From: Escherichia virus TH43
Length of the DNA: 64,000 bases
Strand: one strand, 5' to 3'
Sequence record: MT446414.1
Below are positions 16,755-27,787 of this stretch, piece by piece (position 1 is the stretch's first letter; each line of letters starts with the position of its first letter). Below the pieces are notes generated by a model that was not told the DNA's origin, did not search any database, and saw only the letters and a list, made by a program, of their open reading frames with translations. Made by a program: the position numbers and the translations under genes.

Positions 16755-19700
16755 TTACTCTTTAGCTCGAACTCTAACCCGGAGTTTAGCTTGACGCTTA
16801 CTTCTCTCCAACTTGTCAGACAGAGAACCACGTTTGACTTTCAACTCTCCCTCGTCATTATACTTCTCCAAGAACTGTAAATACTCTTGTCGAGTAGTTG
16901 TCTTGTAAGAAGGAATCTTAACATCAGGATTCTCTTCAATCACACGTCTAATCTTCGCTACATCATCCCGCCCTAAAAGTTTCCCTTTAGCTTGTTCAGC
17001 AGTAGAACCAAAGATTTTCTCCAGTGCTCTAGATTTGTTACCACCCGCTGAAGCAGCACCAAGTTTCGCAATAGCAGAGTAATCGTCAGCACTAAACCAA
17101 GCCACTGGATTATCTCCATATTGTTTCTTGTTCTCCGCAGCAGTTTGTAAAGCACGCACAAAGCGACGGTTATTACCAGCTTTGTCAGCACCATGAACCC
17201 TATCTAGAACTTCTGCTACACTAGCCAGCTCCTGCAAGTCTTTCCCTTCGATAAAAGCTTTCTCTGCTTTGTTAGCAAAGTCATCTTCCTGCTTCTTAAT
17301 ACTTTCCAGTATATCAGAGGAGGCTTGAGACCTTTCATCTTCCGGCAACGCCGAACGAACTTTCTCCATTTCCAACTCTTCATCCTGAAGTTTCTTCAAC
17401 TCAGAATCTACCTTCCTAGCATCTTCGATAGCTTTCGAAGTATCTGCATCCACCTCTACCTTCCCATCCATATCACCAGTTGCCTTAGCAATATCTTTCT
17501 CGATTGGTGTCATCTTCTCAAAATCCTTAGCAAACTTTGAAATATCCGATTCAATACGAGAACGAGCATTCTGGTGCTCAGTAGGAGTCATAGGTTTCTC
17601 CAGAAGAGAGTAACGGTTATCCATATAAGAACCTGCAAAGATTTCTGCATCTTCTTTAGGAATCCCTTTATCCTCCATAGAACGCATCAGGCGCTTATGA
17701 ATGTCATCACGTTGGCGTTGTATTGCCATGCGATCGTTCTCTGCTTCCTGAGCTTCTTTGAGCTTCTTGTCACGTTGTACACGGGAATCAATGTCGTATT
17801 TACGGTTCATCTCTTCCGCCTGTTCGTACATCTTATTCCACTTAGCTTCTCGAGCATCTTCTTCCGCTTCAGTGAGACGACGCTTACGGTCAATGTAATC
17901 ACTTTCTGCGTTGTGGATACGTTCGATAATACTACGGAAACGCTCCGGTGGCACAGGAGAGTTCTTATCGTGGTGAGCTGCTAACTGTTTCAGTGTACGA
18001 CCTTCCTGAGACTCACGTACCGACTCTGGTAAATCTTTCAACAGGTTCTCCATCTCCGATTTCTGAGCCGCTATAGCTTCGAGAGACTGTCTTTCTGTCT
18101 CTACTGCTGCCTTGGCATCACTACGAGCTTTAGCCCTGTTACGGAGCGTCTCAAGACGTTCTTGACGTGCTTGCAAATGTTTAGCTGCTGCTTCGTACTG
18201 AGAGTTCTTATTAGCTTTGTTGAACATGTTAACTTCACGGTTATATGTGTTAATGAAGCCATCCCATATATCCTTCATCTGTCCCACTTCCAAAGCATCT
18301 TCCCTTCCAGCCTTCTCTGAAGCTTTAAACTTCCCATCTACAAAGTCTTCCATCAACTTACGCATAGCATCTTTTTGAGCTGGACGTAATGGCTCTGCAT
18401 CAAGAAGTAAATTGATTTCGCTGTGTAACTCTTTCTTCTGGTCAACCAGCTTAGGAGCATCAGCTTTATCAAGCTTCTTATTCTCTGCAAGAGCTTCTTC
18501 ATACATCCTATTAAATTCATCATCACGTTGTTTCTGATACAGACGTTCAGACCTACGCTTCAGTGAGTCTAGACTAGTCACGTTCCCACCAATACCTTTC
18601 TCCTCAGCACGTAATGCCTTGGTAGCAATATCAGAAGGTAGACCACGTTCCTTAACCCAATCAGCAAACGAAGAACGAACACGTTGTGACTTAGCAGCAG
18701 CAATACCCTGTTGAGAAGCAAGTTGGTTACGAGCCATCTCAGCATGACGTTCAGCATTGTTGGCTTGGTCTTCCTGACGGATACGACGCATCAACTCTTT
18801 CGGGTCACCTTTATAAGAAAGGAAGTTCTCAGCTGTGGCTTTAGCCTTAGCACCTGCCGTATACAGAGAACGAGCAAAGCGATCTGCACGATCTTTAGTA
18901 GCTTGACGGGCAGCACTTGACATAGCAGCCAGACGCTCTATTCCAGTAGCTGGTTTAACAGGCTCAGGCTCAACCTCAGGAGCTTTAGGAGCACGGGTAG
19001 GTAATGGCTCGGCTTGAACGATAGGCTCCTCAGGAACGCTCTCAGCAGCCTTGCTAGCCTCTTCTGCTTCTTGACGTTTACGAGCTTCTGCAACAGCACG
19101 ACGCTGAGCAACTAAATCCCTTGCGGTAGTAACTGGTTCTTGTGGAACTGGCTCTGGAGTTGGTTCTTCCTGAACCCTGTTAGCTTCGGCTTCTTGACGT
19201 CTAGCTTCAGCTTCCTTCAAAGCACGTCTCTGTGCGACCAAATCACGAGCAGTTAAAGGAGAGGTTTCTGGAGAGGAAATTTCTTCCGTCACAGTAGTAG
19301 CAGAAGGCTCCCGAACCGGTTCGATTTCCGTGTCATTTTGAGTCTTAAATTTAATGTCATCAACTTCAGGTTCTTTCTCCATCGCAGCACGGGCTTCATC
19401 AGCCTGAGCACGAGCACGAGTTACTTCCATATCACTACGAGCAAGAGAACGAATAGCTTCACTGTTAGCAGCCTGCTGGCTTTCACGTTGAGAGCGAGCA
19501 CGGTCAGAACGGAAACGGTTAAGAACATGCTTAGCAGCACCAAGAGGATTCTTAATCAGAACTGGAGGAGCAGCTTCTTTAAAACCATCAGCAGTCAGAG
19601 AAGTCCAACCACGGTCTTGGTTACTCATTAACTTAGCTGTGTTATTCAGAGTGAAAGCATCTTGGATTGGGTTGAAACCTTCAGGCATTCCTTTAAGTTT

Positions 19701-21173
19701 CTTCAAACCACCAATAGCAGTTTTCATTTCTGGAGATACATTATCAGCCAGTTTCTGAAGCTCTGTAGCTTTCTCTATGAAGTTATTAAAGTCTTCACCA
19801 TCACGAGCTTTGAATCGATTAGCTTCGTTATAGAAAGTTTTATAAGCATCAATGAAATCACGATCTGCTTGGGTACGATTCTTAATGTCCATAGCACTAC
19901 CAGTAAAATCACCACTGGCACGAGCAGCTGTTAATTCACGATCAAGGTTATCCAGAACATCAGACAAAGATTTAGTGTTGTCTTTTGTATAATCAGCCAT
20001 TGCATCTTTCATTGCCACAGCTTGTTTCTGGTTATGTTCGTTGTCTGCGTTAGCTTTACCTTGCTTCTTATTAGGAGCAGCAAGAGGATTTAAACCCGGA
20101 ACATTAGAACGATCTTCCAGAATAGTAGCAGCCTTCTCGGCACGACTTTGATCAGTATTAAGGATACGCTGAGCAGCAGGAGAGTCCATAGCCACAGCAT
20201 CAGTAACACGGAAACCGTTCTCATCGAGGAGATTAAGAGCAGAAGCTGTGTTAGCGTTATCAGCTTTAGAGTAAGCCTCTCTTAGTTCGTCTGCATTTTT
20301 AGCTGAGCGAATAGCTTCATCTTCAGCGGCAATGTCAGTCTTAACGTGTTCTGGAGTACGGTCAAAGACTTGAGGACTAGGACGACTTATCAATCCATGA
20401 ACCCCACCAATAGCCCCACCGTAAGCAGCACCCATCGCACCTTCTTCTACAGCACCTTCAATGATATTAGCAAGAGTAGTGTCATCACCATATTTGTTCT
20501 GTGCTTCAGCAGCACCTACAAGAGCACCACCTTTAGCACCAGCCACTGCGTTAGATGCTACACTCTGACCAACACGACCTAGGGTAGTAGAAGCAGTGCC
20601 TGTCATCCCCGGAAGAATCTTCTGAGCTGCAAAGTTAGCACCACCAACTAAACCAGCATCAAGAACAGACTTCTCTTCACCCTCTTCTGGAGTTTGGTCT
20701 GCATAAGCTCTACCTGTTTCACGAGCTGCAATAACAGCAGCAGCTACAGCTGGGTTAGCAACCGTAAGACCAATATCAGCGGCAACGCCAGCATACTGAC
20801 CTACAGATTTACCTACACCATCTTCGATTTGAGAGAGACGTTCTTCTAGTAAGTTTTTAGAGTTGTCTTGAATACGCTTACCGTAACTTGTCTGTGTACC
20901 AGCTAGATTTTCTCCAATCTCAACTAATCCACCAATACCTCTAGCAGCACTGGCTGCAATGTTTGCACCACCTGATTGAATAGCGTTGGACACACCTTGG
21001 GCAAAATCACCAACCAACCCCGGTTGCTCTTCTTGTTTAGGAGCTGGAGCAGCCTCAGGAATCGTTCCACCCGCTGCTTTATACTGTTCTCGCATCTGAG
21101 ACTGTTGCTCAGGGGAGGCATTCAAATACGCAGGGCTTTTAGAAGCTTCTTCCCACGGTTTTAAGTTCGCCAT
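16755..21173 (-). CDS. large virion structural protein (internal/ejection protein candidate), 1472 aa
   Basis: long charged coiled-coil regions with internal tandem repeat; last gene of late block. Confidence 0.55.
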   Translation of the reverse strand: MANLKPWEEASKSPAYLNASPEQQSQMREQYKAAGGTIPEAAPAPKQEEQPGLVGDFAQGVSNAIQSGGANIAASAARGIGGLVEIGENLAGTQTSYGKRIQDNSKNLLEERLSQIEDGVGKSVGQYAGVAADIGLTVANPAVAAAVIAARETGRAYADQTPEEGEEKSVLDAGLVGGANFAAQKILPGMTGTASTTLGRVGQSVASNAVAGAKGGALVGAAEAQNKYGDDTTLANIIEGAVEEGAMGAAYGGAIGGVHGLISRPSPQVFDRTPEHVKTDIAAEDEAIRSAKNADELREAYSKADNANTASALNLLDENGFRVTDAVAMDSPAAQRILNTDQSRAEKAATILEDRSNVPGLNPLAAPNKKQGKANADNEHNQKQAVAMKDAMADYTKDNTKSLSDVLDNLDRELTAARASGDFTGSAMDIKNRTQADRDFIDAYKTFYNEANRFKARDGEDFNNFIEKATELQKLADNVSPEMKTAIGGLKKLKGMPEGFNPIQDAFTLNNTAKLMSNQDRGWTSLTADGFKEAAPPVLIKNPLGAAKHVLNRFRSDRARSQRESQQAANSEAIRSLARSDMEVTRARAQADEARAAMEKEPEVDDIKFKTQNDTEIEPVREPSATTVTEEISSPETSPLTARDLVAQRRALKEAEARRQEAEANRVQEEPTPEPVPQEPVTTARDLVAQRRAVAEARKRQEAEEASKAAESVPEEPIVQAEPLPTRAPKAPEVEPEPVKPATGIERLAAMSSAARQATKDRADRFARSLYTAGAKAKATAENFLSYKGDPKELMRRIRQEDQANNAERHAEMARNQLASQQGIAAAKSQRVRSSFADWVKERGLPSDIATKALRAEEKGIGGNVTSLDSLKRRSERLYQKQRDDEFNRMYEEALAENKKLDKADAPKLVDQKKELHSEINLLLDAEPLRPAQKDAMRKLMEDFVDGKFKASEKAGREDALEVGQMKDIWDGFINTYNREVNMFNKANKNSQYEAAAKHLQARQERLETLRNRAKARSDAKAAVETERQSLEAIAAQKSEMENLLKDLPESVRESQEGRTLKQLAAHHDKNSPVPPERFRSIIERIHNAESDYIDRKRRLTEAEEDAREAKWNKMYEQAEEMNRKYDIDSRVQRDKKLKEAQEAENDRMAIQRQRDDIHKRLMRSMEDKGIPKEDAEIFAGSYMDNRYSLLEKPMTPTEHQNARSRIESDISKFAKDFEKMTPIEKDIAKATGDMDGKVEVDADTSKAIEDARKVDSELKKLQDEELEMEKVRSALPEDERSQASSDILESIKKQEDDFANKAEKAFIEGKDLQELASVAEVLDRVHGADKAGNNRRFVRALQTAAENKKQYGDNPVAWFSADDYSAIAKLGAASAGGNKSRALEKIFGSTAEQAKGKLLGRDDVAKIRRVIEENPDVKIPSYKTTTRQEYLQFLEKYNDEGELKVKRGSLSDKLERSKRQAKLRVRVRAKE

Positions 21174-21238: not shown

Positions 21239-22870
21239 TTACTGAGTCATCCAATCAGTGTTAGAAGACAAAGCACCGTTAAGTTTAGGATTGGTTGCTG
21301 AACCACCAACAGCTGCTTCAGACTCTGCTTCGAATACACCGAGAGGGTCATAGAAACCAGCAGAAGGAATAGCTCGGTTAACAAGAGCAGTTGCACGTTT
21401 CTTGTCCATACCAGAACCAACATAAGCTTCAATAGTTGCTTTCTTAGAATCTTTAACACCTTTCTCAGCAGAAGTAGCACCGACCGTCGCTTGTTTACGA
21501 GCATAAGACAGAGCAGCATCAGATGGACGATAACCAGCTTTAAGAGACCAAGTGTTACCTACCTTAACAAGAATGGATGGGTCTTCTGCGAAGTGTGACA
21601 AGTCATCAGCTTGCAGAGAACGGTTAGCTCCAATCTCAGCTCTTGCGGAGTTCATAATAGCCTGCATGTAAGCAGAACGAGCAGTCTGATAATCACCATC
21701 CTTAACTGCTTTGTCTGCCAAATCCAAATCTTTATGAGACTGGTTAAACAGTCCTGCCTTCTCTGCCCACTGTTTAGCAACCGTACCTTCAGCAGTGTTC
21801 TGAGCAAGACGAACTTCTTTCGGGTTAAAGTTAAAACTTTGAGCAGCTTGTTCTGCACGGTCTGCCTTAACTTGATCACGATAACCAATCAACTCTTTCT
21901 GTTTCTCAAACTGAGCATCAGCACGTTGTTCAGCAGCACGACGAGTTTCAGCAGCACGTTCCCGCATCGAATTCTCTTGAATCTGTTGACGTCTGTCCCA
22001 CTCTTGATTAGCACGAGCTTCGTCTTGAGCGGCTAGAGCCATCTTCTCTTGAGGACTAATCTGACGCATCTTCAGAAGAGAAGGATCACCAGCAGCTACA
22101 GCAGCAGCTACAGAATCCTGAGAGTAACCTTGTTCGATCAGGTTATCACGGTTCAGTTCTAATTGTTGTTTAGCTTCATCCTGAGATGCCATACCAGAGC
22201 CAATCTGGAATGCTTCAATCGGAGATTTACCAGACATAATAGAAAGACCCACACCCATCAATCCTGTATAGAAACTAGAGTTTTGATAGAAAGGTTGTTT
22301 CTGCATAGTCTTCCAAGCTTCTGCTGGATTCTTGGACTGTGCAACTTTAAGAATATCCTGATTCACACGTTCCTGATCAGCAGCACGAGTAGCACCACCC
22401 ATACCTTCACCCTGAGGAACACCAGAAGCGATAGTATTCATGACACCTTGGGCCTGTTGTACTTGCTCAGGGGCAAACTCTTTATCTGACTCTTCAATTG
22501 GTTTAGCAGGAGCTGTAACCGGAAGAGGGTTAGAAGCAGGAGCTACGTCAGCAGGCATCATAGAGCCTTCATCACCCGGATTAATGCCAGCATCAATACC
22601 AGCCAAACTAGTAGGAGTAGAAATACCCTGCTGTTCATAAAGACGTTGCTTGAATCCCGGATTCATCATAGCTTCTTGGTCAGCCTGTGCTTGTTCGACT
22701 GTAGCTCCTAAGACAGCAGGAAGAGCTGGACGCTGATACATAGATAAGTCAGCTGCTGGACCAGCAGGTCTGGACATGTAAGGAGAGGCCGTAACCCCTC
22801 TCTGACGATCACCATAAATCTGATTTCGCGGGTCTTGACTACGAAGATACGCGTAAGATGTTTGTTGCAT
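21239..22870 (-). CDS. virion structural protein (internal virion protein candidate)
   Basis: position in structural block; low-complexity regions. Confidence 0.5.
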   Translation of the reverse strand: MQQTSYAYLRSQDPRNQIYGDRQRGVTASPYMSRPAGPAADLSMYQRPALPAVLGATVEQAQADQEAMMNPGFKQRLYEQQGISTPTSLAGIDAGINPGDEGSMMPADVAPASNPLPVTAPAKPIEESDKEFAPEQVQQAQGVMNTIASGVPQGEGMGGATRAADQERVNQDILKVAQSKNPAEAWKTMQKQPFYQNSSFYTGLMGVGLSIMSGKSPIEAFQIGSGMASQDEAKQQLELNRDNLIEQGYSQDSVAAAVAAGDPSLLKMRQISPQEKMALAAQDEARANQEWDRRQQIQENSMRERAAETRRAAEQRADAQFEKQKELIGYRDQVKADRAEQAAQSFNFNPKEVRLAQNTAEGTVAKQWAEKAGLFNQSHKDLDLADKAVKDGDYQTARSAYMQAIMNSARAEIGANRSLQADDLSHFAEDPSILVKVGNTWSLKAGYRPSDAALSYARKQATVGATSAEKGVKDSKKATIEAYVGSGMDKKRATALVNRAIPSAGFYDPLGVFEAESEAAVGGSATNPKLNGALSSNTDWMTQ

Positions 22871-22884
22871 AATTAATCTCCTAA

Positions 22885-23853
22885 TTAAGAACTAGCCAAC
22901 CCACCGATAACCCCACCTGCTAACGCACCCCAAGGTCCGAAGGAAGAGCCTGCTGCTGCGCCACTCATAGCACCACCTAAGAAACCACTCCCACCACCTG
23001 AAACCTTATTAGTAGTTGTAGTACCTAAAGCACCGTTGAGAACACCAGCTGCACCGAGTTGGTTGTTAATGTCTTGCCAGCCCCAATTGGCTGCATTCTG
23101 AGCATTTGTATAAGCATTATCCAGACCAGCTTGTTGCTGTTGCTGTTGCTGCAAACCTGCTGCCCACTGATTCTGCATCTGCTGCTGGGATAGTTGACCT
23201 GCTTGGGTTCCTAGATTAGATAAAGAACTACCAATTCCAGAGAGTCCACTTAGAGCAGAAGCTTGAGATTGTCTATTACCTGACAGAATGCTTTGAGCTT
23301 GATTAAGAGCTGAATCATAAGCACTGTTGGTAATATTGGTTGCTGTGTTCTGCATCTGATTAAGAGCATCACCTTGAGCAAAAGATTTAGCCATTCTAGC
23401 ACCTGAACCTTGCTGTCCAGCATATTGCTGAGCCAACTGAGGTAGAGCATTACGAGCCAAATCCTGTTGTGTCTGTTCATTGTTAGCTGTAATAGCAGCC
23501 TGAACAGCTTCATCGTCATAGAGCTGACCAGCCAAGGCACCAATCTGTTCACCAGTAATTTGACCAGAGTTAGATAGGTTGTTATATCCTGAATTGGCTT
23601 GGTCGAGATACCCCAGACCAGATTGAGCAGCATCCATATATTGAGAAGACAGAGCACCAAGTGCTCCTGATTGAGAAAGGTTATTCAGAGCCTCAGTTTG
23701 GTTCTGATTGAAACCTACATTATCTCTATAAACATAATCGCCTGAACTTGTGTTATTCACCTGATTAACCAGTTGGTCAATATAGGATTGAATATATTCA
23801 GGTCTTGTCATTTTGGAAGTAGAAGAGCTACTCCCTCCACCGAATAAAGCCAT
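22885..23853 (-). CDS. Q/N/G/S-rich low-complexity virion protein; paralog of 23863..24912
   Basis: M-x-LFG N-terminus, Q/N-rich body, Gly-rich hydrophobic C-terminus. Confidence 0.5.
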   Translation of the reverse strand: MALFGGGSSSSTSKMTRPEYIQSYIDQLVNQVNNTSSGDYVYRDNVGFNQNQTEALNNLSQSGALGALSSQYMDAAQSGLGYLDQANSGYNNLSNSGQITGEQIGALAGQLYDDEAVQAAITANNEQTQQDLARNALPQLAQQYAGQQGSGARMAKSFAQGDALNQMQNTATNITNSAYDSALNQAQSILSGNRQSQASALSGLSGIGSSLSNLGTQAGQLSQQQMQNQWAAGLQQQQQQQAGLDNAYTNAQNAANWGWQDINNQLGAAGVLNGALGTTTTNKVSGGGSGFLGGAMSGAAAGSSFGPWGALAGGVIGGLASS

Positions 23854-23862
23854 AAACCCTCC

Positions 23863-24912
23863 TTAGTTTGCCCCGAAGGCACCTAGAACACCACCCAAAA
23901 TATTACTCCCAGCTGTAGACAACCAGTTATTCTGATTACTCTGATTGGACAGGTTAGACCCACCGATCATAGGACCAGCCATACCAGATTGACCACCCGA
24001 AGCATTATAAGAGTTCCAAGCATTCTGAGTTTGTTGACTAGGAGTGAAAGCACCCAATCTACCAGCAATACCTAGACCAGTCACTCCAGCACCGAGAATT
24101 TGCTGGGATGTGTTAGGAGAGGCTCCTTTATTAGTAATTGTATAACCAGCCATAGGGCTTACTGAGTTTAATACATTTAATTGGTTGTTGAGTTGATTCC
24201 ATCCGTACTGTTGACTACCAATAGCATTCTGCCAATTAAGGTCAGCTTGAGTCTGATCTTGCTGCTGCTGTAAGTTACCAGCAGTAAGTTGATTCTGGAT
24301 AGCCTGTTGAGCTGCCTGAGTGCCTTGAGAGCCGAGGTTAAGGTTTTGTCCAGCCAACCCTGTTTGTGCGTTCAGAAGGCCTTGCTGGAAGGAACTGTTA
24401 GACCTTAAAGCGTCAACACCTAAGTTCTTACCAGAGATAGTACGAGACAGGTTGGTATTAGCAGAATTCAAAGCAGCACCCTGAGCAGCAGCCCTACGAA
24501 GAGACCCTGAATCAGAACCATTACCAAGAGATACGTTAGATGCAGCCTTTCCTGTTGCCTGAGCCAGTGCAGAACTGTTTAGACCAGAACTGAACTTGTT
24601 AACATCACTAGCACTGATTGAACTATTAGCCAAGTCTTGATATCTCTGAGCCAAAGTGTTCATCTGATCCAGACCTTGTTGTGTCCGAGGAGTATACATA
24701 TTACTCAGTTGATTCAAGGTGGAAGAGTTAGCTAAGTTAGATAGAGCAGCTTGTTGGTTAGGGTTAAGGCCAGCTAGTTGCTGAGAAATAAATCCAGCAT
24801 CATTGCTGTTCATATTCTGAGCATTAGCCACAATCTGTTTTAACAGAGCATCAACCTGAGAGGATGGAGCCACTGTAGTTTTAGTCTTAGAAGCAGACCC
24901 GAATAAAGACAT
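23863..24912 (-). CDS. Q/N/G/S-rich low-complexity virion protein; paralog of 22885..23853
   Basis: same architecture as its neighbour. Confidence 0.5.
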   Translation of the reverse strand: MSLFGSASKTKTTVAPSSQVDALLKQIVANAQNMNSNDAGFISQQLAGLNPNQQAALSNLANSSTLNQLSNMYTPRTQQGLDQMNTLAQRYQDLANSSISASDVNKFSSGLNSSALAQATGKAASNVSLGNGSDSGSLRRAAAQGAALNSANTNLSRTISGKNLGVDALRSNSSFQQGLLNAQTGLAGQNLNLGSQGTQAAQQAIQNQLTAGNLQQQQDQTQADLNWQNAIGSQQYGWNQLNNQLNVLNSVSPMAGYTITNKGASPNTSQQILGAGVTGLGIAGRLGAFTPSQQTQNAWNSYNASGGQSGMAGPMIGGSNLSNQSNQNNWLSTAGSNILGGVLGAFGAN

Positions 24913-24924
24913 ACGTCCTCCTTA

Positions 24925-25719
24925 TTATTTAATAACACCAACACTTGCCAAACGTCTAAGAACGGCTTGTGTCTGTGGGCTGTATTGAGAACCTGCTTGA
25001 GTTGGTGCATGTGCTCTCTGAACTGTTTGAGACTTAGGAGCCTTTCCTGCTAACATCGCAGCAGCAGCTAGTGCAGCATTACCGAAGTTCTGTTGTGGTT
25101 TCTGATCTTCCCCAGCCTCTTCTGCATCGTCAGAATAGAACTCAGCAGGAGAACCTCCTAGAGCGCCTGTCTTAGCAGCAGCAATCTCAGCTTGAGTAGG
25201 AGCATTAGCAGCACCTTCTTTAGTAACCAACTCAGGAGAGAATTGGTTCACTGGCTGTGCTGATTGTAAAGCCCCAACAGGATTAGCCACCTGACCAGCA
25301 GCATCATTAGCTGTATAGAAAGGAAGGAAGTTCTTATTGTTCATAGAATCCAAGGCTTGAGGTGTAAACCCCTTCTTACCAGCGAACATTTGTTTTGCTC
25401 CACCAGTCCCTTCAGAGTATCCCACCATAGCTTTCTTCACATCACCATTAAAAGCTTTCAAATTATCACGAATATATCTAGCACCCATGTCAATGTTTTT
25501 GGCTGGGTCTAAACGATCTTCTAGTTTGTATCCATAGTCTTTAGCCAACCCTTTACTAATTTGCATTAAACCTACTGGCCCTGTACCTGATGCAACAGAA
25601 GGTCTACCACTAGACTCCCTCTGAATGACCGCATGGATAAGAGCAGCAGGAATGCCATACTTCTTAGAAGCTTGCTGGACCATAGGGTCAAGCTCGGACA
25701 CTCCCATGCGTATTGTCAT
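24925..25719 (-). CDS. lytic transglycosylase (SLT domain) virion protein
   Basis: SLT motif IQRESSGRP...GLMQIS...Y. Confidence 0.7.
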   Translation of the reverse strand: MTIRMGVSELDPMVQQASKKYGIPAALIHAVIQRESSGRPSVASGTGPVGLMQISKGLAKDYGYKLEDRLDPAKNIDMGARYIRDNLKAFNGDVKKAMVGYSEGTGGAKQMFAGKKGFTPQALDSMNNKNFLPFYTANDAAGQVANPVGALQSAQPVNQFSPELVTKEGAANAPTQAEIAAAKTGALGGSPAEFYSDDAEEAGEDQKPQQNFGNAALAAAAMLAGKAPKSQTVQRAHAPTQAGSQYSPQTQAVLRRLASVGVIK

Positions 25720-25731
25720 AAATCCTCCTTA

Positions 25732-26763
25732 TTATAGACCCGCAAAAACTTTAGCCGCATTTATTACCGGAATTGATATATTAATGGCAGAGTTAGAACC
25801 TAGGTCATAATTGGTAGACCACTGGAACATATACCTACCATAGCCAGTACCTATAGAAGATCCTGTCATTACATGAGATCTCATTTGCTGATAGTACCAA
25901 CCACTACCACTACCCCGAATAGCACCTACACCAGAGGAGAGTGGTATCATTGGGTATGCCATACCAGTATCACCTCCAGCAGAACCTACAAAATTATCAA
26001 CAGTAAAAGGTGTTCTATTAGTAGAGAACACACACTGAGTTGTTCCGGGAGAATAAATATTTAATCCACCATTGTGCTCAGGAACTCCTGCTCCATTACA
26101 GAATACTGCGACCCTAGCAAATACAGAACCGCCTTCGTTAGAGTTTCCGTTATTATAAGATCTGTTCTGATATACACGGATCACTCTATCTCCAGATGTA
26201 TAAGAAAGGCCAACCCCTCCGTCAGACCAGTTAGCAAAGACTACAGCATTAGGCATATAAAACCCACCAATGTCAGGAATCTGTAAAGCGCCGTTTATAG
26301 TCCCTTGCCAAGCCCAAATACACTGACCAACAACACCAGCATCAGAGATAGAGAAGTAATCAGCTGTATTAGAGAAGGTAATACCATAATTTCTGTCAGC
26401 TCTTGGGTAGATTTGGTAAACGTTAAACCCACAATCAAACAGGGGGTTACTTCCGGGATTCTGGTTTAAGTTAACTCTGAAAGAGGAGTTATTCTCTACA
26501 TAAATGTTATTAACACAATAAACATCAGGAACCAAGTTAGGAGGAACTTCCCACTGCCAGCACAGAGACCCAGTAGGGACGATAATTATCTGACCGCTAC
26601 CATCCCAACCATTAATAGGGAAAGATCTCCCACCCCCGTTAAAGTTGAAACTCCCACTAATAGAGTTCTTAATCTGAGGGAATGTACTCCCACTATCAAT
26701 AAACAAAGGAGCCGGAGAGGCTGGCCCCGGTCCTACAGGTTGACACCATATTCCATATGCCAT
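25732..26763 (-). CDS. tail protein (Gly/Asn-rich, beta-rich)
   Basis: position; composition. Confidence 0.45.
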   Translation of the reverse strand: MAYGIWCQPVGPGPASPAPLFIDSGSTFPQIKNSISGSFNFNGGGRSFPINGWDGSGQIIIVPTGSLCWQWEVPPNLVPDVYCVNNIYVENNSSFRVNLNQNPGSNPLFDCGFNVYQIYPRADRNYGITFSNTADYFSISDAGVVGQCIWAWQGTINGALQIPDIGGFYMPNAVVFANWSDGGVGLSYTSGDRVIRVYQNRSYNNGNSNEGGSVFARVAVFCNGAGVPEHNGGLNIYSPGTTQCVFSTNRTPFTVDNFVGSAGGDTGMAYPMIPLSSGVGAIRGSGSGWYYQQMRSHVMTGSSIGTGYGRYMFQWSTNYDLGSNSAINISIPVINAAKVFAGL

Positions 26764-26764
26764 A

Positions 26765-27787
26765 TTACCAACTCCCTATTCTAATTCTCAAAGCACCACC
26801 ACCGTCATAGAAATCAATCCTGTTACCATTCATCCACAGCTGTGCCCCACCTGTACCACCCATAACAAAATCCCCACCAACTGTAAGTCTCCAGTTAGAA
26901 CCACTCATAGAGCCAGCAGTAATCTTGTTAGCAGTAAGGTTAGCAATCTGTCCATCTTGAATCCACACGTTATCAATCTGAGCAAACTGGATTCGAGCAT
27001 TAGCAATCTGAGCAGTTGTAATGTTGACATTCTTGATATCAGCGAATTCCATTCTAGCTCTACCACCTTCAAAAACAAAAGGAGTATTACCAGAGTTGCC
27101 ATCACCAACAATAAACTTATTAGCCGTTACTTGGAATTGGCTGTTCGTGCCGTTGTTAGTTAGTTTAACACCAGCGTACTGACCATTAACAGAAGAGTTG
27201 ACACCCCATGTAGCTTCGTAACTATCTAGTCTCATGTATTGAGAAAGAGAGTTCTGTACAGTAGTAACCTTACCATCCACTTCGGCAATCTGAGTACCTT
27301 GAGCAGTAAGTTCTGTCTGAACTAAAGCAATCTCTTGTCCTTGTTCATTCACAATACCTTGTACTGTCTGAATCTTTAAATCATTACCTTCAATAGAAGT
27401 TTTGAAACCTGCAACTGTACCATCTAGTTTAGTCGGAGGGTTAGTGCTTCTATCCCAAATATCTTCAGTAGAAAGATTACCCATCTGTGTTTGGATATCA
27501 GCAATAGCTGTTTCAATCTCTGTAGTAATTCGGTTCTCAAGTTCATCAAACTGTAGGTTCATTGCATTAAGAGCTTTAATACGAACATCTATCTCTTCAT
27601 GAATCTCGTCGATTGCTTGGAACATCTGGTTAGTTGCTGTACTGACTTTCTGTAATTCATCATAAACTGCAACGTTGTATTTATCCGTATCCTCTACATT
27701 GTTTAGAAACCCAACGTTGTAGGGAAGTGTGGTGTTGTTTCTTCCAGTATTCTTACGAAAACCTCCAGCACCCATAAGTACCTCCAA
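26765..27787 (-). CDS. tail fibre-like protein
   Basis: N-terminal coiled coil then repetitive beta-rich region. Confidence 0.5.
   Translation of the reverse strand: MEVLMGAGGFRKNTGRNNTTLPYNVGFLNNVEDTDKYNVAVYDELQKVSTATNQMFQAIDEIHEEIDVRIKALNAMNLQFDELENRITTEIETAIADIQTQMGNLSTEDIWDRSTNPPTKLDGTVAGFKTSIEGNDLKIQTVQGIVNEQGQEIALVQTELTAQGTQIAEVDGKVTTVQNSLSQYMRLDSYEATWGVNSSVNGQYAGVKLTNNGTNSQFQVTANKFIVGDGNSGNTPFVFEGGRARMEFADIKNVNITTAQIANARIQFAQIDNVWIQDGQIANLTANKITAGSMSGSNWRLTVGGDFVMGGTGGAQLWMNGNRIDFYDGGGALRIRIGSW

Follow-up and report, generated by a model that had tools for sequence, protein, structure and literature searches.

Judged by homology and synteny, the two adjacent genes that we analyze here, in a window of 64,000 nucleotides of Escherichia virus TH43 (MT446414.1), code for the pair of small ejection proteins of a podophage of the Kuravirus type (phiEco32/SU10-type): paralogue A, 349 aa long (MSLFGS..., positions 23863..24912, minus strand), the orthologue of SU10 gp21, and paralogue B, 322 aa long (MALFGGG..., positions 22885..23853, minus strand), the orthologue of SU10 gp22. 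This identification is already known, being both published and carried as the label 'DNA ejection protein' in RefSeq and PHROGs; what is new here is the size of the family to which the pair belongs and its resemblance to gp7 of phage P22. From this comparison, we consider it probable that A and B are ejection proteins acting as a gp7-like channel between the tail and the outer membrane, possibly in the form of a hetero-oligomer. To our knowledge, no part of the podophage virion is less well understood than its ejection proteins, and in the Kuravirus group, which is represented in phage-therapy cocktails and characterized by an unusual extending tail nozzle, none of the five ejected proteins has been assigned a role. 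Likewise, we know of no publication that gives the structure, the number of copies, the target membrane, or the separate roles of SU10 gp21 and gp22.

The window belongs to a Kuravirus-like coliphage that is 98.7% identical to phage Bas88, in which both genes are annotated as 'DNA ejection protein'. The PHROG bearing the same name (phrog_4287) matches paralogue A over residues 2-349 (E = 2.4e-102) and paralogue B over residues 1-310 (E = 6.4e-100), SU10 gp21 is 79% identical to paralogue A, and SU10 gp22 is the syntenic counterpart of paralogue B; SU10 gp21 and gp22 are direct orthologues, with no substantive difference from the pair of the window. The order of the open reading frames is that of SU10 gp16-gp24 and of Bas88 alike, namely SLT, A, B, a protein of ~540 aa and a protein of ~1470 aa, downstream of the nozzle and tail-needle genes, the hexameric nozzle protein being the 1001-aa protein of the window, equivalent to SU10 gp17. 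The five-gene ejection-protein block, entirely on the minus strand, opens with the gene of an SLT lytic transglycosylase of 264 aa (24925..25719; PF01464, E = 4.3e-24; phrog_12507; orthologue of SU10 gp20), which the gene pair adjoins, thereby standing in a context of envelope penetration. After A and B come a 543-aa ejection protein (21239..22870; phrog_12130 over its full length, and synteny; orthologue of SU10 gp23) and a 1472-aa ejection protein (16755..21173; phrog_14629 over its full length, and synteny; orthologue of SU10 gp24). An AAGGAGG Shine-Dalgarno site precedes each paralogue gene, and gaps of 9-14 nt separate the two genes from their neighbours. The layout drawn in the preliminary description, with two adjacent frames of 322 and 349 codons lying between the transglycosylase and the large proteins, is therefore recovered exactly, coordinates included.

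As for the virion itself, nanoLC-MS/MS of SU10 particles detected gp21 (53% coverage, 11 peptides), gp22 (49% coverage, 5 peptides), and gp24 (73% coverage) (PMC4281155), and SDS-PAGE combined with mass spectrometry found SU10 gp20-24 in virions and missing from genome-release intermediates (PMC9509320, Supplementary Fig. 4C). The presence of A and B in the particle and their ejection are supported by these observations, which were made on the SU10 orthologues only. The preliminary description had regarded the two proteins as probably ejected or internal virion proteins, a view to be given up were they absent from virions; since both orthologues were detected in purified SU10 virions and are lost on genome release, that absence is not what is seen.

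The two proteins are true paralogues. They share 30% identity over 285 aa (BLASTP with compositional adjustment, E = 2e-10), and their Smith-Waterman score of 296 stands far above those of global shuffles (94.5 +/- 11.8, z = 17) and of 20-residue block shuffles (114 +/- 13, z = 13.6), so that the paralogy first proposed holds against shuffles at z = 14-17, as it does through the common match to phrog_4287. A recent DNA duplication or an artefact can be ruled out because the identity is only 30% and both proteins were detected by mass spectrometry in SU10. The common M-x-LFG N-terminus that had been pointed out is also genuine and conserved: it reads M-S-L-F-G in paralogue A (24898..24912, minus strand; alignments A1 and A5) and M-A-L-F-G in paralogue B (23839..23853, minus strand; column conservation of 0.76 for L, 0.76 for F, and 0.81 for G in 22 non-redundant sequences), and 'MGLFG' is the most frequent N-terminus among distant relatives.

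Both proteins are strongly biased in composition. The window has 59 open reading frames of 100 aa or more, with medians of 29% for Gln, Asn, Ser, Gly, and Ala taken together and of 24.5% for charged residues; in the two paralogues, the five residues add up to 62.2% and 63.0% and the charged ones to only 6.6-7.8%, and a count over each sequence returned neither Cys nor His. PolyQ runs are found at residue 215 in paralogue A (Q4) and at residues 223 (Q3) and 235-241 (Q7) in paralogue B, in agreement with the Gln/Asn/Ser/Gly/Ala-rich body with polyQ noticed at the outset. The further claim that such a composition is unusual for virion components is right within this genome and fails for the protein class, mature P22 gp7 having nearly the same profile (61% of these five residues, 8.6% charged residues, no Cys or His). 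Searches of Pfam and NCBIfam gave nothing above threshold for either paralogue, and the weak matches to Muted, FmdA, and ComGC were dismissed as noise; searches of PDB sequences with each protein and with the family profile gave no credible match, the best being Rab-43 and TIP20 (E ~0.6-1).

The Gly-rich hydrophobic C-termini of the preliminary description are likewise present, and they can be described more precisely as Gly-zipper tails. Paralogue B has a C-terminal tail at residues 283-322 (22888..23007, minus strand) made of a Gly-zipper arm, an F-G-P-W-G turn, and a second Gly-zipper arm, with a register that runs over residues 286-306 and resumes over 309-317. Nothing else in paralogue B is as conserved as this tail (mean 0.76), which is predicted to form a membrane-inserting hairpin. 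Paralogue A displays a first hydrophobic Gly-zipper arm at residues 270-289 (QQILGAGVTGLGIAGRLGAF; 24046..24105, minus strand), which contains the hydropathy maximum of paralogue A (1.29 for the 19-residue Kyte-Doolittle window at residue 272) and is kept across the A family and in a distant relative (P0093), and a terminal Gly-zipper arm at residues 336-349 (SNILGGVLGAFGAN; 23866..23907, minus strand), close to a second hydropathy peak at residue 330 and kept in the closer members of the A family, from the window protein (A349) through P0037. The two layouts thus differ, B ending in a compact two-arm hairpin and A in an arm, a Q/N/G spacer of ~55 aa, and another arm, and in both the hydropathy is low by the standard of a classical transmembrane helix (maximum of 0.94-1.29 over 19-residue Kyte-Doolittle windows). 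With regard to the Gly-zipper families of Pfam (PF05433, PF13441, PF13488, and the bacteriocin family PF10439), the resemblance lies in the (G/A/S)xxx(G/A/S) register of the B tail over ~35 residues and stays at the level of the motif, every score being under the gathering threshold: the isolated B tail reaches 16.6 bits for the Glycine zipper 2TM family PF05433 (cutoff 24.2) and 12.3 bits for PF13441 (cutoff 28.9), it is sub-threshold for the class IIc bacteriocins (PF10439), and one relative (P0097) comes closer to PF13441 with 24.7 bits.

A parallel to this ensemble of features is found in P22 gp7 and Sf6 gp11. Both are, like the window proteins, small ejection proteins encoded at the head of an ejection-protein block, with a Q/N/S/G/A-rich, charge-poor composition free of Cys and His and a helical body, which in A and B is predicted. 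In gp7, moreover, the tail layout is the same as in paralogue B, a Gly-zipper, PWG, and a Gly-zipper following each other in both ('...GGGASGAIAGAGLAKLIGSSTPWGAAIGGGIGL' in gp7, '...GGGSGFLGGAMSGAAAGSSFGPWGALAGGVIGGL' in B), and the motif 'FGPWGAAIGG' also occurs in distant family members. According to an in situ cryo-EM study of P22 (bioRxiv 10.64898/2026.09.03.749273, a preprint not yet peer reviewed), processed gp7 forms a dodecamer of helical hairpins, bundled by a network of Q/N hydrogen bonds, on a hexameric hub, 24 helices from the V-shaped C-terminus (I191-F229) lie within the outer membrane, and a single polypeptide alternates between 'inner' and 'outer' conformations, which fits the 12-mer onto the 6-fold hub.

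At the profile level, hhalign aligned the B family with the gp7 family in a short local match of 54 columns (probability 74%, E = 2.8e-5, score 41.8, to be read against a within-family reversed-sequence control of 73.9), together with a second, colinear match in the tail (score 32.9). As the reversed-sequence controls show that composition can inflate hhalign scores, column-shuffle nulls were added: their maxima were 22 for global and 31.4 for block-25 shuffles, and none of the 45 reached the observed score. The match of a tail-only HMM to gp7 was statistically marginal, being equalled or exceeded by 39 of 2,000 composition-matched shuffles, and is therefore treated as an architectural resemblance. 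The gp7 family of Pfam (PF25688) did not match either paralogue even at E <= 10, the gp7 PHROG (phrog_598) matched neither the paralogues nor any of 82 relatives, and plain HMMs derived from the family alignments A1 and A5 did not find gp7 at E <= 1e-3. The window proteins also depart from gp7 in being 100-120 residues longer (322-349 aa vs. 229 aa), in being two diverged paralogues where P22 has one gene, in an MxLFG N-terminus that is not the gp7 leader, and in a docking partner that would be the SU10-type nozzle instead of the gp10 hub of P22. Altogether, we regard the homology of A and B to gp7 as suggested, not established.

T7 gp14, the smallest ejection protein of its phage, is expelled first, is helical, and forms a pore in the outer membrane (PMC8954989), and it resembles A and B in functional class only: it is 20% charged, less Q/N-rich, and devoid of a Gly-zipper/PWG tail, and the SLT domain that T7 fuses to gp16 is a separate protein in the window phage. 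A relationship with gp14 (phrog_805) was ruled out (hhalign probability 0.08%; gp14 itself matches only phrog_805), as was one with P22 gp20 (hhalign probability 0.5%).

On the gp7-like reading, the first steps of DNA delivery could proceed as follows. The orthologues of A and B have been shown to be packaged in the head and to exit the particle on genome release along with the counterparts of the SLT transglycosylase, the 543-aa protein, and the 1472-aa protein. After detachment of the tail needle, A and B would pass through the tail in an extended form and refold outside the virion, where their Q/N-rich bodies could fold into helical hairpins lying side by side and joined by Gln/Asn hydrogen bonds, thereby forming a tube on the hexameric tail nozzle. 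The 'Gly-zipper - PWG - Gly-zipper' hairpin would then enter the outer membrane and open a first pore, after which the SLT enzyme, the 543-aa protein, and the 1472-aa protein would carry the conduit onward through the periplasm and the inner membrane. The charge-poor, Q/N/G/S/A-rich composition would suit a protein that has to be soluble in the capsid, threadable through a narrow passage, later able to zipper with itself, and compatible with a membrane. If gp21 and gp22 were indeed gp7-like, this composition would gain a structural rationale (self-zippering helical hairpins and a Gly-zipper membrane hairpin), and DNA delivery by Kuraviruses would have, for its first step, a template in the in situ structure of P22. 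The basic, already published identification is left unchanged by this reading.

From a broader perspective, the family is far larger than the Kuraviruses. An exhaustive profile search gathered 1,119 cluster representatives, a breadth visible only by this approach, since a word-indexed protein search returned only 48 clusters per paralogue; tblastn against phage genomes retrieved Kuravirus-like phages only (98 records). All 82 distant relatives examined match phrog_4287, and if gp21 and gp22 were gp7-like, more than 1,000 mostly unannotated metagenomic proteins would gain a testable function. Two long relatives carry the family domain fused to a cell-wall hydrolase. As a side note, the E. coli chromosomal relative (L003) found no match in a search of complete E. 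coli genomes.

These relatives also bring up a different view of the family, in which the helical body would be a parallel three-stranded coiled-coil rod, akin to a tape measure or a needle extension, that resides in the lumen of the portal or tail and is the first to be expelled, with a Gly-zipper tip that is membrane-active outside any 12-mer pore. Indeed, a Peptidase_S74 domain, typical of trimeric fibres, directly follows the family body in 14 of the 82 short relatives and 6 of the 24 long ones. The replacement of the tail by this trimer chaperone does not fit the gp7-like channel, as it suggests a trimer, not a dodecamer. This feature, which likens 20 of the 106 distant members examined (~19%) to chaperone-bearing fibre proteins, is however lacking in paralogues A and B and in the Kuravirus proteins at large. 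Matches of one relative to a tape-measure PHROG and of several to tail-fibre PHROGs point in the same direction, but the fibre matches may merely reflect the S74 domain or Gly-rich segments. A rod would also be in keeping with a single-copy locus (L005) where the family gene lies immediately upstream of the tail-needle gene, and with the unassigned density in the portal barrel of SU10 (PMC9509320). P22 gp7, which the window proteins resemble in composition, in the layout of the tail, and through the local profile match, points to a hairpin-bundle channel, and we consider the rod unlikely for the window proteins.

Several views can be taken on why there are two genes. Paralogues A and B are each present in 98 Kuravirus-like phage records, and more distant SU10-like phages hold a single copy of the family gene. 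Paralogue A is the more diverged copy and B the more conservative one (182 vs. 249 bits with the broad-family HMM), A has an extra ~55 Q/N/G-rich residues towards its C-terminus, and a divergence map locates the main differences between the two in the central segment and the tails. One proposal is that the tandem pair is a hard-wired version of the two P22 gp7 conformers, six gp21 and six gp22 alternating in a heterododecamer on the hexameric nozzle, with residues 112-186 of A (where a 16-residue indel is found) serving as a hub-docking 'fingertip' and the diverged tails giving an asymmetric pore in the outer membrane; we find it doubtful. If gp21 and gp22 were gp7-like, the duplicated pair would amount to a natural experiment on how a symmetry mismatch (12 on 6) is resolved. 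The co-retained copies, the single-copy distant relatives, the divergence map, and the two-conformer structure of P22 all fit such a heterododecamer, none of them being a direct test. The same strict retention of both copies, the diverged tails, and the ability of distant relatives to manage with one copy would also suit a division of labour without a shared ring, with the paralogues inserted in different membranes, outer and cytoplasmic, or with one of them lining the lumen as P22 gp20 does; however, the periplasm and the inner membrane would more naturally fall to the 543-aa and 1472-aa proteins, by comparison with T7 gp15/gp16 and P22 gp20/gp16 (PMC8954989), which makes us think such a division rather improbable.

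Finally, the term low-complexity, under which the pair had first been filed, calls for a caveat. The reduction in sequence entropy is moderate (2.7-3.8 bits in windows of 40 aa), conservation at Q/N positions matches that of the remaining residues (0.51 vs. 0.47), 16 of these positions being at least 80% conserved, and 24 columns are invariant in the paralogue B family alignment (A2). AF2 run with the family alignments predicts a helical body at about residues 18-270 in both paralogues, with low confidence (pLDDT 47 and 43); a Foldseek search of the PDB with the model gave no match, these pLDDT values being too low for a fold comparison. With Q/N sites conserved and a helical body predicted, the pair does not show the compositional bias free of positional conservation and regular structure that would characterize disordered or prion-like proteins. 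That the two proteins are disordered filler, acting as pressure or DNA-packing buffers, or amyloid-forming Q/N domains with no defined channel, might be argued from their composition with its polyQ runs, the low AF2 confidence, and the virion structure of SU10, where gp20-24 have no resolved density in the head (PMC9509320), but it is very improbable given these conserved Q/N sites, the strongly conserved tail and N-terminus, the consistent helix pattern predicted in both paralogues, a charge so low as to disfavour DNA binding, and the fact that P22 gp7, for all its similar composition, forms an ordered helical assembly once ejected.

The two adjacent minus-strand genes encoding A349 (23863..24912, 349 aa) and B322 (22885..23853, 322 aa), whose extents match exactly those of the preliminary description, are each preceded by an AAGGAGG ribosome-binding site and lie just 9–14 nt from adjoining genes, a spacing expected of genes in an operon. 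On the coding strand, a nozzle-like 1001-aa protein, a tail needle (Phage_Tail_Tip), a DUF6453 protein, and an SLT transglycosylase (24925-25719, directly preceding A349) come before the pair, and a 543-aa and a 1472-aa protein come after it. That the pair are tandem paralogues is borne out by an alignment spanning 285 residues at 30% identity (E = 2e-10, compositionally adjusted); the Smith–Waterman score, 296, exceeds that of global shuffles by 17 SD and that of shuffles preserving local composition by 13.6 SD. The two proteins are closest to each other at A349 residues 1-110 and 187-265, and furthest apart in their tails and centre (A349 112-186, including a 16-residue indel).

The polyQ runs, MxLFG N-termini, and Gly-rich hydrophobic C-termini described earlier are all present in the pair, and the Q/N/G/S/A-rich bodies make these the two most biased ORFs of the window: Q, N, S, G, and A together account for 62-63% of residues against a median of 29%, charged residues for 6.6-7.8% against 24.5%, and Cys and His are absent from both. 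The label "low-complexity" carries the caveat that a helical body is predicted in both paralogues and that, among 22 non-redundant relatives, Q/N positions are no less conserved than the rest (0.51 vs. 0.47), 16 of them being conserved at 80% or more. The segment of highest conservation in these relatives is the C-terminal tail (0.76). This positional conservation contradicts a role as disordered filler, which we regard as very improbable.

The identity of the pair and its virion and ejection status are, as a matter of fact, already known. Identity of the region is 98.7% with Escherichia phage StefiGeyer_Bas88 and some 80% with SU7, phiEco32, and SU10-type phages. The Bas88 and RefSeq SU10 records label each of the two genes "DNA ejection protein", and phrog_4287 is matched end to end by each protein. 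Since the SU10 locus tags agree with the numbering of the SU10 papers (gp16 short fibre, gp17 nozzle, gp18 needle, and gp20 transglycosylase), A349 is the orthologue of gp21 (79% identity) and B322 that of gp22. In purified SU10 virions, LC-MS/MS detected 11 peptides of gp21 (53% coverage) and 5 of gp22 (49% coverage) (PMC4281155). Moreover, SDS-PAGE and MS found gp20-24 in virions and no longer in genome-release intermediates, leading the authors to name them ejection proteins, with no density assignable to them (PMC9509320). Packaging and ejection with the genome have therefore been shown for the SU10 orthologues, and these two experiments support the earlier reading of "ejected or internal virion proteins", albeit as published knowledge; that A349 and B322 are themselves ejection proteins is highly probable. 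The present analysis adds, more modestly, the size of the family, its single-copy ancestral state, a gp7-like architecture, and the S74 variants.

Word-indexed searches returned just 48 clusters for each paralogue, whereas a profile run exhaustively against 1.84 billion cluster representatives identified 1,119 relatives at E <= 1e-3, of which 189 reach E <= 1e-10; the relatives are mostly 300-430 aa long and matched over their full length. All 82 shorter relatives scanned belong to phrog_4287; they have a median Q+N+S+G+A share of 53%, most commonly begin with "MGLFG", and in half of cases carry a Gly-zipper chain of 4 or more. The relatives lie in modules that also encode an SU10-type capsid, portal, and adaptor. 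Two tandem copies are found in the Kuravirus group and in an E. coli chromosomal element, and a single copy in two more distant loci. A349 and B322 each occur in 98 phage records, and because the broad-family HMM scores B322 higher (249 vs. 182 bits), B322 is the more conservative of the two, A349 having diverged further. The chromosomal element (locus L003, 1-20969; assembly GCA_023211535.1, 389-kb contig DAHCAP010000002.1) is an SU10-like structural module ordered SU10_MCP, terminase, SU10_portal, then SLT-334-322-498-1113 aa, both paralogues included; it tentatively suggests that the Kuraviruses, otherwise lytic, have an integrated or temperate relative, and a search of 5,426 complete E. 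coli genomes found no similar DNA. On a 101-kb contig of a distant SU10-like phage (locus L005, 10001-12171), the single-copy member lies directly upstream of the gene for the tail needle instead of following an SLT gene; that block has no called SLT domain.

Neither Pfam nor NCBIfam families are matched by the pair, and sequence and profile searches retrieved no PDB relatives. AF2 models built with family alignments reached pLDDT of 47 and 43, with a common helix pattern at about residues 18-270 followed by an unstructured tail, and Foldseek gave no PDB match. Low monomer confidence is expected of proteins that fold only inside an oligomer; with such confidence, no fold claim is possible.

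The family profile gave nothing against T7 gp14 or P22 gp20, but aligned with P22 gp7 through the C-terminal tail of the latter ("GGGASGAIAGAGLAKLIGSSTPWGAAIGGGIGL" in gp7, "GGGSGFLGGAMSGAAAGSSFGPWGALAGGVIGGL" in B322), and the motif "FGPWGAAIGG.IG", likewise resembling this tail, recurs in distant family members. Mature gp7 also resembles the pair in composition (61% Q+N+S+G+A, 8.6% charged, free of Cys and His). With hhalign, the gp7-family alignment matched the B322 family over 54 N-terminal columns (probability 74%, E = 2.8e-5, score 41.8); column-shuffled gp7 alignments peaked at 22 (global) and 31.4 (block-25), none of 45 of either kind reaching the observed score. A tail match (score 32.9) is colinear with the N-terminal one. 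Against homology, a reversed-sequence control inside the family scored 73.9, a tail-only HMM test was marginal (p ~0.02), plain HMMs of the family did not retrieve gp7, and neither window protein matched the gp7 Pfam family PF25688. We conclude that the two families share a common architecture and possibly a distant common origin, membership of the pair in the gp7 family not being established.

In situ cryo-EM of infecting P22 (September 2026 preprint) shows processed gp7 as a dodecamer whose subunits, fold-back two-helix hairpins, form a 24-helix extracellular channel on the hexameric hub gp10; many hydrogen bonds between Gln and Asn residues network the bundle together, neighbours alternate "inner" and "outer" conformations, reconciling C12 with C6, and the V-shaped C-terminus I191-F229 contributes 24/36 outer-membrane-embedded helices (10.64898/2026.09.03.749273). 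I191-F229 is exactly the Gly-zipper/PWG tail of gp7, and this structure offers a rationale for each odd feature noticed here: Q/N richness, low charge, and a Gly-rich hydrophobic end.

On this basis, A349 and B322 would leave the virion first once the needle is lost, refold on the nozzle as a hairpin-bundle tube, and embed their tails in the outer membrane, after which the SLT enzyme, together with the 543-aa and 1472-aa proteins, would complete the conduit, in parallel with the gp14/gp15/gp16 and gp7/gp20/gp16 schemes (PMC8954989). A role in envelope penetration is supported by two long relatives, P0174 and P0229, in which a cell-wall hydrolase (Hydrolase_2, ~residues 535-655) is joined to the family domain. 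We consider a gp7-like mechanism evenly balanced, and the joint statement that the pair are ejection proteins acting in this way somewhat probable.

The rival that survives best, although unlikely, is a trimeric rod or tape-measure-like model. S74 domains are known in trimeric fibres. In 14 of the 82 short relatives and 6 of 24 long ones, a Peptidase_S74 intramolecular chaperone stands where the Gly-zipper tail would be (the main support for this model); the domain directly follows the family domain in P0174, P0190, P0229, and 14 members of an alignment of distant relatives. A parallel trimer is accordingly suggested, and does not obviously fit a dodecameric ring of hairpins. One further relative (P0093, L005 10001-11170) looks S74-like by eye only. 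Within the gp7-like mechanism, gp21 and gp22 might be hard-wired to fill the inner and outer positions of a 6+6 channel, which we hold to be doubtful; another rival, that A349 and B322, so divergent in their tails, are aimed at different membranes, seems slightly more doubtful still.

Among the neighbours, the DUF6453 protein (phrog_1265 "membrane protein"; 25732-26763, minus strand, 343 aa), between the needle and SLT genes within the virion-gene block, is G/N/S-rich and contains Cys; its SU10 equivalent, gp19, is not on the published SU10 virion proteome list. The tail-needle ORF, called mechanically at 26765-27787 (minus strand) from a TTG start, encodes 340 aa (MEVLMGAGG...), when the Bas88 annotation gives 336 aa from an internal ATG, a trivial start-codon ambiguity.
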